A stretch of DNA of 24,770 nt from Merismopediaceae cyanobacterium (GTDB lineage: Bacteria > Cyanobacteriota > Cyanobacteriia > Cyanobacteriales > Microcystaceae), in contig JBEIFD010000001.1 of the NCBI GenBank assembly GCA_040382535.1, forward strand, positions 1 to 24,770, read 5' to 3'. The notes beneath the pieces are model-generated. The model had not been told where the DNA came from. It did not search any database and worked only from the letters and a program-made list of their open reading frames with translations. Position 1 is the stretch's first letter. Each line of letters opens with the position of its first letter. The translations under genes and the position numbers were made by a program. Shown here one piece after another: positions 11,260 through 15,416 of this stretch.

Positions 11260-12114
11260 TTAGTAATGTAAGGGAATTAAAATCAAAGGAACAAAGGCTA
11301 AACCCAATAAAACCCAATTTAAAAAATTATTTTCAATTAACAAGGTATCTGGGGGTTCAATTAGATAATTAATACGGCTAACTAAACGATTATCTTGATG
11401 ATTGAATGCCGCACAGATCGCTTCAAAATTGGGAAAGATGGTCACTTCCTGCATATTTTTGGCGACTAACATCAACGATTCTGCTAATAGCAAGGGATCG
11501 ACCTGTTGAGCTGCTTTTTTGTCTGCCCGAATTTCTCTCATAAATAATAACTCTTGCCAAAGTTGTTCAGTTTGAGGAAGCCAAAAGCTGATCTCGCGCA
11601 ACCAACCCAGGCAGAAAAACCAAAAGGTATCTCGATAATAATAATGGGCATTTTCGTGAGCGAGGACGGCTTGTAAATGTTCCTCGTCTAGACTGTCTAA
11701 TAATCCTTGACTAATCACTAATTCAGGATTCCAGAGGCCAATTTGCGCACTGTAGGGGAATGGTGTCTCTAGGATGCGAGTGGGTTGATTTTGGATAAAT
11801 CCTTTGGTGTAATGCCGAATTTGTTGAATAGCTCTGGTTGCTTGCCAGAGTCGATACAAACCTAATCCCAAGCTCCACAGCAAAAACGCGATCGCCACAC
11901 CATAACTTAACCAACTTGCCTTTAACCCAAACATCATGCCCTGATAACCCATTGAAACAACGGCCAGAGCAGTCATCAGCAGTAATACAGGGGGGAAAAC
12001 AAAAAGAAATAGGACTTTTTGCCAACAAAATCCTGATTCAGGACTTAAAACAGGAATTAATGCCCGTAATAACCAAGCAATGCCTATCGCCAAGATTAAT
12101 ATCATTAAGTGCAT
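11260..12114 (-). CDS. petP: BlaR/M56-like membrane metalloprotease, probable PetP
   Basis: N-terminal TM helices, HEXXH (LAHENAH) and EIRAD. It lies directly downstream of a BlaI-family regulator. Confidence 0.8.
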   Translation of the reverse strand: MHLMILILAIGIAWLLRALIPVLSPESGFCWQKVLFLFVFPPVLLLMTALAVVSMGYQGMMFGLKASWLSYGVAIAFLLWSLGLGLYRLWQATRAIQQIRHYTKGFIQNQPTRILETPFPYSAQIGLWNPELVISQGLLDSLDEEHLQAVLAHENAHYYYRDTFWFFCLGWLREISFWLPQTEQLWQELLFMREIRADKKAAQQVDPLLLAESLMLVAKNMQEVTIFPNFEAICAAFNHQDNRLVSRINYLIEPPDTLLIENNFLNWVLLGLAFVPLILIPLHY

Positions 12115-12123
12115 AGATTAAAA

Positions 12124-12540
12124 CTACTCCCCCCGTTGAGAACGAATGGCTTTCAGTCGGGTTGCGATCGCGTCTAGTTGTTCAATGCTCGCCGTATCTA
12201 AACTATCGGCAAAGGAGGCGACCACATCGGGATTACTAATAGACAAAAATTGCTGTAATTGTTCGTAGGACTTAATTGCCTTAGCCTGAGCCCTAGAAAC
12301 GGTCGCTTTCCAAGAAAACGCCTTACCTTCCCTATGGCAAACCAGCCAACCTTTTTGGGTCAGACGATTTAACACCGTTGTGACTGAAGAATAGGCCAGT
12401 TCGCGATCGGGATTCGCTAAAATTCGTTCATGAATATCTTTTACCGTCGCAATTTCCAGATCCCAAACAATTTGTAAAATCTCGCTCTCTAGGGGGCCAA
12501 GGGACAGTTGATGGGGACGATGGGGAGGAAGCCAAGACAT
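12124..12540 (-). CDS. petR: BlaI/MecI/CopY-family transcriptional regulator, probable PetR
   Basis: LSLGPLESEILQIVW...ELAYSSVTTVLNRLTQKGWL winged helix. The regulator-protease-bcp order matches the Synechocystis slr0240-slr0242 locus as I recall it. Confidence 0.8.
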   Translation of the reverse strand: MSWLPPHRPHQLSLGPLESEILQIVWDLEIATVKDIHERILANPDRELAYSSVTTVLNRLTQKGWLVCHREGKAFSWKATVSRAQAKAIKSYEQLQQFLSISNPDVVASFADSLDTASIEQLDAIATRLKAIRSQRGE

Positions 12541-12635
12541 AAGCAATAGAGATCAATAATTCCTAATGGGGTTAGTGTATCTTAGTAAATAATACGTTTA
12601 ATGCACTCATAGAGCAAATATTCCCAACGAAGCCT

Positions 12636-13427
12636 ATGACTCTTTCTCTTGATAAAACTAACCTAGCGATCGAGTGGGAACTTCTTCCCGCCGATTACAT
12701 TTTACCAGATGATCCTGTGGATAATGATACTCAACCCCTATTAGCCGAAGCCCTCAGAGAAGGCATTACGGAAGCTCAACTCCTTAAATCCACTGGATTT
12801 ATTGCTACCAATTTCGGCATCTGTTTACGAGTGGCGGGAAAATTTGTTATCAAAGCTCCTGATTGGGTTTGGGTGCAAGAAACAAAAGAACAACGCTCTG
12901 GCCGTCGTAGTTATACACCCCACCGAGAAGGAGATTTACCCCAGATAGTGATGGAATTTCTCTCAGAAACCGATGGTGGAGAATATTCTGTCTATCCTAA
13001 TTTTCCCTACGGTAAATGGTACTACTATGAACAGCTACTAAAAGTTCCCTATTACTGTATTTTTGAACCAGAAACAGGACATCTGGAATGTTATGTTTGG
13101 AAGCAAGGACATTATCAACCTTTGACTCCTAATGAGCAGGGTCTATTTTGGATAGAAACTTTAGATCTATTTTTAGGAGTTTGGCAAGGAGAAAGAGCCG
13201 CTCGCCAGGGCTATTGGTTGCGGTGGTGGAATGCTTCAGCAGAATTATTATTGTGGGGCAACGAAAAAGCCCAACAAGAATATCTGAGAGCAGAAAAGGC
13301 TCTTCAGGAATTAGAACAGCAGCGTCTAAAGGTTGTGCAAGCTCTTCAGGAAGCAGAGCAACAAAAACAACAGGCCCAACGGTTAGCTGAAAAATTGAGA
13401 GAGTTAGGCGTTGATCCTAATGGCTGA
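12636..13427 (+). CDS. Uma2 (DUF820) family endonuclease with C-terminal coiled coil
   Basis: LPDDPVDN, KAPDW, PQIVMEFLS, GKWYYYE, WLRWW and the tail AQRLAEKLRELGVDP. Confidence 0.9.
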   Translation: MTLSLDKTNLAIEWELLPADYILPDDPVDNDTQPLLAEALREGITEAQLLKSTGFIATNFGICLRVAGKFVIKAPDWVWVQETKEQRSGRRSYTPHREGDLPQIVMEFLSETDGGEYSVYPNFPYGKWYYYEQLLKVPYYCIFEPETGHLECYVWKQGHYQPLTPNEQGLFWIETLDLFLGVWQGERAARQGYWLRWWNASAELLLWGNEKAQQEYLRAEKALQELEQQRLKVVQALQEAEQQKQQAQRLAEKLRELGVDPNG

Positions 13428-13522
13428 TTTTTAATTAGTATCTATTGACACAAAATACAAACTCCCCCTTAACTAAATTACCTATTGATCGGTTATACTG
13501 GAGAGAGTATTGAGGAAAAATC

Positions 13523-13783
13523 ATGGGACAGCGATTAAAACGGTGGGAGTCACCCCGTCGCGAGGGTCGAAATGACAAGGGCAAAGGGGGTTCGGCACGG
13601 CAACGACAACTGAAAAAACGACAACAGATGTTACGCCAGAAACTCCAAGACAATTCCAATAATTCAGATAAGGGAAGAGATTTTATAAAGAAGTCTCTTC
13701 TTTTTTTGTGGAACAGCTACTTGCGTGTTAATCGTTATAGAAACAAGACCTACAGCATTTTCTTATTCAATCTCAACAGTTAA
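13523..13783 (+). CDS. Small basic protein (WESPRREGRNDKGKGGSARQRQ); candidate alternative ribosome-rescue factor
   Basis: GAGG RBS at 13512-13515 and a TATACT -10 box at 13494-13499. The N-terminal ~42 aa are very Arg/Lys-rich, and I recall similar short proteins as cyanobacterial hypotheticals. The function is inference only. Confidence 0.7.
   Translation: MGQRLKRWESPRREGRNDKGKGGSARQRQLKKRQQMLRQKLQDNSNNSDKGRDFIKKSLLFLWNSYLRVNRYRNKTYSIFLFNLNS
13674..13707 (+). terminator. Intrinsic terminator located inside the small ORF
   Basis: Stem GAAGAGATTT (13674-13683) pairs with AAGTCTCTTC (13691-13700), with one G-U pair and a 7-nt loop, followed by T7 (13701-13707). Confidence 0.7.
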
Positions 13784-13841
13784 GGACATAATATATTATG
13801 TCCCTACAGGATTTTGTCCATCACCTCAACGGCAAGTTTTG

Positions 13842-15416
13842 ATGATTAAAAATTTACATTTTCAGAAAATTATTAATATTAAAAATTATCAAGATAAAGA
13901 GTGGTTAATTGTCTTAACTTTATCAGCATTTTTTCTATGGTTTATTAATTTGGGAAGCGTCGCTCTCAGGGATTGGGATGAAGGTTATTATGCGACTGTT
14001 TCCCAGGATATGTTTAATCGAAATACCTGGCTTTATCCCACCTATCAAGGCCAGCCTTTTTTATTAAAACCCCCTTTATTGTTGTGGCTCATTCATCTGA
14101 GTTATTCCCTCTTGGGTATTAGTGAATGGACATCCCGTTTACCGTCTGCCTTTTTAGCCGCTTGTGGTGTGCCTCTTCTTTATCTAATGGGTCGAGAATT
14201 ATTTATTAATCGTTCTGCGGCTATTTTTTCGGCAGGTGTTTATTTAACGTTATTGCCTGTGGTTAGATTAGGAAGGTTAGCGATGTTGGATGGCATGATT
14301 AACACTTTTCTTTTGTTAGCAATTTTAAGTTTACTTAAAGGAAAAAAATCACCGTATTGGTTAATCGGAATCGGCATTGGCTTGGGGTTAATTACCTTAA
14401 CGAAAGGAATTTTGGTGTTGGCATTGGGTGCGATTTTATTGGTTTTTATTGTTCTGGATGGACGTTGGAAAATTTTACTTAATCCCTATTTATGGATTGG
14501 ATTAATTCTCGGATTTATACCTGTTTTTCTCTGGTATGGTTTACAAGTTCAACATTACGGACAAACTTTTATTCAGGTTCATTTTCAATCCCAAAGCTTT
14601 GATCGCCTCTCGACTGCGGTAGAAGGTAATACGGGGCCGATTTGGTTTTATTTGATTGATTTATTAAAGTATTCCTGTCCTTGGTTTTTCTTTTTTGTCC
14701 CAGGCTTTTATTTATCCATTAAAAACTATCAAAAAAGTTGGGCAAAATTGGCATTAATCGGTAGCATTATGTATTTTGGCACGGTTTCCTTGATGACAAC
14801 TAAGTTACCCTGGTATCTCATGCCTTTCTATGGCTTCTTCGCTTTAATCACAGGGGCTTATTTAGATTATCTCTATCATCATCCTAAAAAATATCCTCGT
14901 TTAATCTTTTATTTACTGAGTTTATGTGGAATTGTCACGTTAGGCGGAGCAATTTATTTTACTTTTTTTCAACCAAAATTACCTTTAGTCTTAATTAGCC
15001 TAACAATATCGATCGCGTTTATTTTGACAGCGATTCAATTTTGGAAAAATCAGCCTAATTTTATTCCAACTTTAATGATCGGTATTTATTTGACCCTGAG
15101 TTTATTAATGATTTCTCCCCTCTGGCTCTGGGAATTAAATGAAGCTTTTCCTGTCAAACCTGTTGCCCAATTAATCAAACAATCTACGCCTTCTAATACA
15201 ACAATTTACACTTCCTTTGCCTATAGTCGTACCAGTTTAGATTTTTATAGCGATCGCCAAATCCTGGCAGTCGATCGCAGTAAGCTAGAAGAATTAAAGC
15301 AAAAACCCAATTATTTTTTGTTGGACAAGGAAAATCTAGAAAAATTAGCCCTAACAAATTATCAAACTCTAGGAAAAGCAGAAGGATTTGTGTTAATCTG
15401 GTCAAATCCTCATTAA
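13842..15416 (+). CDS. ArnT/PMT-like (GT-C fold) glycosyltransferase
   Basis: LRDWDEGYYA, KPPLLLW, SRLPSA and RLAMLD with many TM helices. ATG 13842 is preferred over the 13725 ORF start. Confidence 0.88.
   Translation: MIKNLHFQKIINIKNYQDKEWLIVLTLSAFFLWFINLGSVALRDWDEGYYATVSQDMFNRNTWLYPTYQGQPFLLKPPLLLWLIHLSYSLLGISEWTSRLPSAFLAACGVPLLYLMGRELFINRSAAIFSAGVYLTLLPVVRLGRLAMLDGMINTFLLLAILSLLKGKKSPYWLIGIGIGLGLITLTKGILVLALGAILLVFIVLDGRWKILLNPYLWIGLILGFIPVFLWYGLQVQHYGQTFIQVHFQSQSFDRLSTAVEGNTGPIWFYLIDLLKYSCPWFFFFVPGFYLSIKNYQKSWAKLALIGSIMYFGTVSLMTTKLPWYLMPFYGFFALITGAYLDYLYHHPKKYPRLIFYLLSLCGIVTLGGAIYFTFFQPKLPLVLISLTISIAFILTAIQFWKNQPNFIPTLMIGIYLTLSLLMISPLWLWELNEAFPVKPVAQLIKQSTPSNTTIYTSFAYSRTSLDFYSDRQILAVDRSKLEELKQKPNYFLLDKENLEKLALTNYQTLGKAEGFVLIWSNPH

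Follow-up and report, generated by a model that had tools for sequence, protein, structure and literature searches.

The window analysed here is a 24,770-nucleotide stretch of the genome of a Merismopediaceae cyanobacterium (contig JBEIFD010000001.1, positions 1 to 24,770 of the forward strand). The subject of this study is a small gene within it, an 86-codon open reading frame (ORF) on the forward strand at 13523–13783 that ends in a TAA at 13781–13783. Directly upstream of the small gene lies a gene for a Uma2-family endonuclease-like protein, and on its 3′ side, on the same strand, is a gene for a PMT_2 glycosyltransferase. The window also encodes a BlaI/Penicillinase_R-type repressor and, adjoining this, a membrane protein with an HExxH motif of the kind found in BlaR1/MecR1-type sensor proteases. 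The positions of these genes and the features that can be recognised in and around the ORF are collected in Table 1.

Table 1. Features of the small gene and of the genes near it in the window
Feature	Position	Strand	Basis or remark
Membrane protein gene (HExxH motif)	11260..12114	-	
BlaI/Penicillinase_R-type repressor gene	12124..12546	-	
Uma2-family endonuclease-like gene	12636..13427		
-10-like hexamer TATACT	13494..13499	+	Sequence reading; presumed own promoter
Shine-Dalgarno sequence GAGG	13512..13515	+	Sequence reading; 7 nt 5′ of ATG
Conserved coding domain, residues 1–42	13523..13648	+	RLKRWESPRR, GRNDKGKGGS and basic helix; 21 invariant columns
Hydrophilic linker, variable, without in-frame stops	13649..13673	+	Orthologue comparison
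Intrinsic-terminator stem-loop within the ORF	13674..13700	+	11-bp stem, 5-nt loop; fold and orthologues
U7 tract	13701..13707	+	Sequence reading; expected transcript 3′ end
Read-through tail, unconstrained, to chance stop TAA	13708..13783	+	Tails unrelated among orthologues
PMT_2 glycosyltransferase gene	13842..15416	+	

The original prediction, made from the DNA letters alone, gave the gene a -10 box and a ribosome-binding site of its own. Both TATACT and GAGG are present as claimed, and the starts of metatranscriptome contigs from two runs, at 13515 and 13518, are consistent with a transcription start site just 3′ of the -10 element, but a consensus promoter scan did not call the hexamer at 13494–13499; a promoter at this site is plausible on the strength of the hexamer. 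Position 13494, given in that prediction as the start, is that of the -10-like TATACT, the ORF itself beginning at the ATG at 13523.

The conserved N-terminal domain

The N-terminal domain encoded by the ORF was found in 34 of 41 relatives by six-frame search and, using a family profile, in 117 of 401 evenly sampled cyanobacterial genomes, in single copy each. Within the order to which the window belongs it is near-universal in several families (41/46 and 25/26, for example, with 19/19 in one genus), and it occurs in a few other orders of the same class; the same profile search of the 401 genomes found it in none of 33 members of one large family and in two of 217 in the rest of the phylum. 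More than 559 loci are present in species-representative genomes. Named carriers include Chamaesiphon, Nostoc, Calothrix, Dolichospermum, Tolypothrix, Pleurocapsa, Coleofasciculus, Stenomitos, Myxacorys and Pseudanabaena, together with Microcoleus-type strains, Snowella, Leptolyngbya boryana and Stanieria. Contigs from bins labelled Chloroflexaceae, Sericytochromatia and Alphaproteobacteria (loci L035, L045 and L068) carry the cyanobacterial gene at 76–83% identity and are probably mis-binned cyanobacterial sequences. The 1753 public homologous proteins, which form 451 clusters at 50% identity, are all named ‘hypothetical’ and have no Pfam domain; in these proteins the domain is always N-terminal and is never part of a fusion.

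The invariant columns were counted across 16 diverse orthologues. They include W8, E9, S10 and P11 in the N-terminal segment and K19, G20, G22 and G23, followed by A25, R26, R28 and K32. A KGKGS-type motif in a Lys/Arg-rich context is present, the resemblance to known factors being at the level of the motif only. AlphaFold2, applied to the alignment, predicts coil for residues 1–22 and a single helix for residues 23–45 (helix pLDDT 77–94).

The pattern of substitution in this domain is that of a protein. Per-column entropy among 93 distinct loci is 0.48, 0.22 and 1.30 at codon positions 1, 2 and 3, respectively, with third positions varying about three to six times more than first and second positions. 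Arginine, leucine and serine codons are swapped between codon families (CGN/AGR, CTN/TTR), tryptophan and methionine codons do not vary, and the orthologues conserve a start codon (ATG or GTG) preceded by a Shine-Dalgarno sequence. The third-position excess and the codon-family swaps indicate a translated protein rather than an RNA and, judged by this comparison of codons, residues 1–42 are shown to constitute a translated, selected protein domain.

A terminator hairpin within the reading frame

The arms of the hairpin within the ORF (5′ arm 13674–13684, 3′ arm 13690–13700) form 11 pairs, including G–U, around a loop at 13685–13689. With the U7 tract that follows (13701–13707) the structure spans codons 51–62, and the end of the U tract lies 74 nt from the stop codon. 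A hairpin with U7 had been predicted at 13674–13707, and our analysis recovered the same coordinates. The 61-nt hairpin stretch has a folding energy of −19.7 kcal/mol (z = −3.65), a value equalled by one in 200 shuffled sequences, and in the computed fold an AAGG sequence pairs with part of the U tract, lengthening the stem. A generic terminator scan did not detect this A/U-rich hairpin because its stem has fewer than three G–C pairs by the rule of the scan. Taken alone, without its orthologues, the hairpin in the window is suggestive only.

To compare the orthologues, 100 loci were picked by tblastn and the next 160 nt of each was scanned for a T tract preceded by a stem-loop. The tblastn query was the consensus of the N-terminus only, making the choice of loci independent of the 3′ sequence. 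A stem-loop with a T tract is found in 98 of the 100 loci. Of the two exceptions, L038 shows no such hairpin in the 97 nt remaining to the end of the contig. The other, L020 (G009:C13, about 1055975–1056145), keeps the hairpin and the rest of the domain but has TAG at the invariant tryptophan codon (RLKR*ESPRR); the gene may have become a pseudogene recently, the TAG may be an error of sequencing, or it may be read through.

Each of the 93 distinct orthologous loci has a terminator hairpin located after the domain and ahead of the first stop codon in frame (median ΔG −16.8 kcal/mol). Hairpins with a ΔG of −12 or below are present in 98% of the distinct loci, compared with 4.3% of 352 windows drawn from the same loci as controls. 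The hairpin is found in each of the three codon phases (40, 32 and 21 loci) and its 7-nt stem ends have 36 different sequences among the 93 loci, with pairing always kept, indicating that what is conserved here is an RNA structure and not a peptide. The original prediction had proposed that an in-frame hairpin and U tract should precede the stop across genera whilst the tails diverge, and this is the pattern observed in many cyanobacterial families; orthologues with a stop codon before the hairpin, which the same prediction listed as evidence against it, were seen in no case.

The reading frame itself behaves differently on the two sides of the hairpin. The 2055 codons that run from the end of the domain to the 3′ end of the hairpin include no in-frame stop, as against 34 stops in the +1 frame and 189 in the +2 frame, and this in spite of a linker that ranges from 8 to 124 nt among orthologues and is not alignable. 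Past the hairpin, the median distances to the first stop in the three frames are 44, 35 and 30 nt, and with distances this similar the coding frame is no longer distinguishable. The tails are unrelated even within a genus in which the N-termini are 96–100% identical. Only four of the 93 loci have a complete stop codon no more than 9 nt from the G/C core of the stem; at these loci, where the stop abuts the U tract, transcription might run through the stop.

Ten more members of the family were taken from complete genomes. Nine were readable, other orders included, and all nine have the same layout; the most divergent of the ten (L111) was located by neither search. At a locus from the Microcystaceae (L107:1004–1210, genome G015) the terminator comes right after the domain, with almost no linker, giving a predicted product of about 50 residues. 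The small gene is present in all six sampled species of the genus to which this locus belongs, and the layout of the locus defines what would be the minimal functional unit. The same locus is present in many metatranscriptomes.

Eight metatranscriptome runs contain part of the region 13300–14000, and the assembled contigs of four of these runs, from four studies, were compared with the window. Three runs provided contigs from close relatives (90–99% identical), covering 13452–13672 at a depth of 23 (run X1), 13515–13662 (X2) and 13518–13681 at a depth of 17 (X7); in X7, the small transcript is the sole assembly product from a 900-nt stretch. The contigs end 25–45 nt before the U tract, as expected of thinly covered, structured 3′ ends, and 13696–13757 is covered by no contig in the four runs, contigs being a guide to presence rather than absence. 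These results fit a discrete RNA, about 190 nt long, with its start just past the -10 box and its end at the hairpin. We infer that the 3′ end lies at the U tract, which would leave the message without a stop codon. Transcripts running through to 13783 had been named beforehand as a result that would speak against such a message; no contig reaches the stop, the three ending at 13662–13681.

Comparison of the orthologues shows a frame that is kept open exactly as far as the conserved terminator and not past it, and a stop-less, tmRNA-gated design is in our judgement very probable. Of the original prediction of an ‘ArfA/BrfA-type ribosome-rescue factor encoded on a non-stop mRNA’, the non-stop, tmRNA-controlled part is borne out as far as sequence comparison can take it, whilst the rescue-factor part is something that we infer.

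Comparison with known rescue systems

In trans-translation, the products of non-stop messages are tagged by tmRNA–SmpB and then proteolysed. To our knowledge, no gene class besides arfA and brfA is built without a usable stop codon, and the only release-factor-dependent back-up rescue factors that we know of come from some proteobacteria (ArfA, ArfT) and from Bacillus (BrfA). The mRNAs of both arfA and brfA lack a stop, and the products of both genes are controlled by tmRNA tagging (PMC6299226, PMC6881298).

ArfA (YhdL, PF03889) is found in beta- and gamma-proteobacteria, where its mRNA is truncated before the stop codon by a terminator or an RNase III site. The protein is tagged by tmRNA unless trans-translation fails, and a KGKGS motif together with Lys/Arg residues binds the empty mRNA channel (PMC6299226). 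Like ArfA, the cyanobacterial candidate has an invariant K-G-x-G-G in a basic context, but its motif is near the middle of the protein and is followed by a long helix, and only about 18 residues precede it compared with about 33 in ArfA. Alignment to E. coli ArfA with hhalign is confined to 14 columns around the KGKG motif (probability 2%), in agreement with the earlier description of an N-terminus shorter than that of ArfA and otherwise dissimilar.

BrfA (YqkK) from Bacillus subtilis is RF2-dependent and shares with the candidate its small size, its basicity and the presence of a rho-independent terminator within the coding region (PMC6881298). The brfA gene has 71 codons and a product of about 62 residues, the basic C-terminal part of which senses the empty mRNA channel (PMC6881298). 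The candidate shows no sequence similarity to BrfA by PDB profile, Pfam or NCBIfam and comes from cyanobacteria rather than Bacillus. ArfT of Francisella is a basic protein of 40 amino acids that bears a motif of the KKGGS type and a charged helix with a presumed role in ribosome binding, and recruits release factors; in contrast to the candidate, arfT lacks an internal terminator and ends in a stop codon of its own (PMC6299226). A wider KGG-repeat family has been proposed by Burroughs and Aravind (PMC6514570). The tails of SmpB and ArfB are also basic and form a helix in the vacant mRNA channel, and the candidate is likewise basic, with a predicted helix; in the genome's own SmpB, the sequence GKGKK can be seen by eye just before the tail helix. 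Unlike these proteins, the candidate has neither the GGQ hydrolase domain nor the SmpB body and, lacking the GGQ domain, cannot act alone as ArfB does.

Searches with family models gave no match in Pfam at E ≤ 1 (with ArfA, KGG and RF-1 models included), in NCBIfam (ArfB included) or, for the region 13300–13900, in Rfam. A scan of the whole genome with PF03889 did not match the small-gene locus. The family profile was also compared with all PDB chains, which we take to include the BrfA–ribosome structure, and at E ≤ 10 a single chance-level match was obtained, to an unrelated nucleolar protein. Look-alikes in the ESM Atlas included no usable named match, and hhalign comparison with the genome's own SmpB and ArfB produced no significant alignment. 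Similarity to BrfA, ArfT/KGG, ArfB and SmpB was not detectable by Pfam, NCBIfam, PDB profile or hhalign. In a complex prediction, the conserved domain folded with Snowella RF2 gave a score of 0.06, which carries no weight for or against binding.

Membership of each known family was considered and rejected: of ArfA (PF03889), given no family-model match and an alignment limited to the motif; of the ArfT/KGG-repeat group, given no Pfam match, an internal terminator and no usable stop; of ArfB (NF006718, RF-1 domain), true ArfB genes being present elsewhere in the genome; and, by sequence, of BrfA (YqkK), given no match by PDB profile, Pfam or NCBIfam. What the small gene does share with arfA and brfA is their design, a terminator that would end the mRNA before the stop, conserved here in 93/93 loci. 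Literature searches for a cyanobacterial ArfA-type factor, or for the peptide motif, returned nothing relevant, and a 2024 survey of 162 cyanobacterial genomes recorded arfA in none, arfB in 90 and rqcH in 161 (PMC11633108), both of which agree with the original statement that no such factor was known in cyanobacteria. The regulatory logic is already known; what is new is the family of the protein and the phylum in which it occurs. The small gene is a strong candidate for the first ArfA/BrfA-type factor in cyanobacteria.

The genome that contains the window encodes tmRNA (with the tag ANNIVSFKRVAVAA), SmpB, RF1 and two copies of ArfB. The ArfB genes (L120, G000:C150:5194–5607, 137 aa, and L121, G000:C610:1565–2005, 146 aa) may have arisen by true duplication, or the bin (contamination 1.9%) may combine more than one strain. 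RF2 was not found in the window's own assembly, which is 85% complete, and is present in the sister genome G001 of the same genus, where the first 24 codons of prfB (L118:2220–2300, minus strand) are followed by the classical programmed +1 frameshift site, CTT TGA C. ArfB is above cut-off in only nine of the 41 relatives. Its distribution is not complementary to that of the small gene, ArfB being found in 7/32 genomes with the gene and 2/9 without it.

A gene for tRNA-Leu(CAA) is located upstream of the small gene and on the same strand in 25 of 60 loci, often 20–35 nt before the ATG. These loci include L037 (1396–1478), L040, L050, L059, L061, L077 and L089. An M48 peptidase gene precedes the tRNA-Leu(CAA) in 24/94 loci. 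This arrangement suggests that the tRNA and the small gene were ancestrally transcribed together, as a tRNA–mRNA co-transcript. No tRNA was found in the window, which appears to have lost the tRNA-Leu(CAA) context, the gene there seeming to use its own promoter.

What the peptide might do

By analogy with ArfA and BrfA, the product of the small gene is most likely a back-up ribosome-rescue factor, a reading that we hold with moderate confidence. Transcription would stop at the in-frame intrinsic terminator (13674–13707) and, with the end of the transcript inside the frame, ribosomes translating a message without a stop codon would run to its 3′ end and stall. The product would be a basic peptide of about 60 residues with its functional part in residues 1–42, where a disordered N-terminal segment (RLKRWESPRR...GRNDKGKGGS) leads into a basic amphipathic helix. 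With trans-translation working, tmRNA–SmpB would add its tag and the peptide would be degraded; with trans-translation saturated or lost, untagged peptide would build up and, as ArfA and BrfA do, bind stalled ribosomes with an empty mRNA channel. The KGKGGS segment and basic helix would occupy the channel, whilst W8, E9, S10 and P11 in the N-terminal segment offer a candidate surface for a release factor, recruitment of which would free the nascent chain. The tmRNA tagging, ribosome binding and release-factor recruitment proposed here are all modelled on the known systems.

The features of the protein (small, very basic, with KGKGGS and then a basic helix) are consistent with a rescue factor, and such a factor could fill a gap left in cyanobacteria by the limited occurrence of ArfB among the relatives and the absence of arfA from the 162 surveyed genomes (PMC11633108). 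Several points count against the rescue reading. No homology to any known rescue factor was detected, the segment of about 18 residues that precedes KGKGGS falls short of the length of the RF2-binding part of ArfA, and the gene does not have a distribution complementary to that of ArfB. RqcH is present in nearly all cyanobacteria (PMC11633108), such that a further back-up is not obviously needed, and the position of the 3′ end rests on assembled contigs that stop before the U tract. A more specific proposal, which strikes us as rather unlikely, is that the peptide is a tmRNA-gated ribosome factor which cyanobacteria invented independently, which is unrelated in sequence to ArfA, BrfA and ArfT, which shared a transcript with tRNA-Leu(CAA) ancestrally and which perhaps acts in a new mode; this may involve recruitment of RF1 as well as RF2, handover to ArfB/RqcH or an mRNA-channel plug that silences ribosomes.

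If the rescue reading is correct, the stop-less logic of rescue has been invented independently a further time, in a major photosynthetic phylum, and it becomes possible to explain how cyanobacteria without ArfB cope with the loss of trans-translation. It would also provide a short and sharply defined peptide for structural study of how an empty mRNA channel is sensed. The rule that emerges, of a frame open to a conserved terminator and random thereafter, offers a general method of searching for such factors in any genome collection. The small gene can be tested directly in carriers such as Leptolyngbya boryana and Stanieria, insofar as their growth and manipulation are possible.

Of the alternatives, the one that fares best is a peptide with some other activity, such as the silencing or protection of idle ribosomes via the empty mRNA channel, a partnership with ArfB, Pth or RqcH, or a role as a nucleic-acid-binding stress regulator, a variant in which the peptide might report low trans-translation capacity. 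This seems to us credible but unlikely: arfA and brfA, the only genes known to us with the stop-less design, both encode rescue factors, KGKGGS followed by a basic helix is the layout common to channel-sensing rescue factors, and none of the alternative functions is positively supported. Nevertheless, the stop-less architecture supports tmRNA gating and is silent on activity, the peptide has no homology to ArfA, BrfA or ArfT and a short N-terminal segment, and the gene coexists with ArfB and, according to the literature, with RqcH (PMC11633108).

It is improbable that the gene encodes an ordinary small basic protein made from transcripts that read through as far as the chance stop, the hairpin then acting as a leaky terminator or 3′ stabiliser. 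The stem in the window is rich in A and U, contigs cannot rule out read-through, and some in-frame stop always exists downstream, within 15 nt of the stem in 15 of the 93 loci. Set against this, the tails are unrelated in length as well as sequence, even within a genus, and the similar distribution of the first post-hairpin stop in the three frames indicates that no tail is under selection. Roughly 34 to 190 stops would have been expected in the linkers at the rates of the other frames, where none is observed, and 13696–13757 is crossed by no RNA contig.

Ribosome-mediated attenuators likewise have an ORF that overlaps a terminator and, with a same-strand gene following in the window, the ORF could be read as the leader peptide of an attenuator for the PMT_2 glycosyltransferase, with translation through the hairpin preventing termination. 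We rejected this as very improbable because downstream genes are not conserved (the largest family accounts for 7/94 loci) and are mostly convergent (50/92 loci have their next gene on the opposite strand); moreover, strict purifying selection on 42 residues in several orders is unlike what is seen in leader peptides. Scarcely credible is a non-coding small RNA or tRNA-Leu trailer that ends at the terminator and carries a fortuitous ORF, for although the discrete transcript of about 190 nt and the tRNA-Leu(CAA) that precedes it on the same strand at 25 of the 60 loci would suit such an RNA, there is no Rfam match and the reading is rejected on the codon-position pattern, with its third-position variation, synonymous Arg/Leu/Ser swaps, fixed Trp/Met codons and conserved start codon and Shine-Dalgarno sequence.

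A palindromic segment at 13783–13819 (GGACATAATATATTATGTCC...) adjoins the chance stop codon on its 3′ side. It is present in single copy in the assembly, allowing up to three mismatches, and matches 33–38-nt pieces, on both strands, in three otherwise unrelated contigs from one metatranscriptome; it may be a mini-repeat that is dispersed in related strains.
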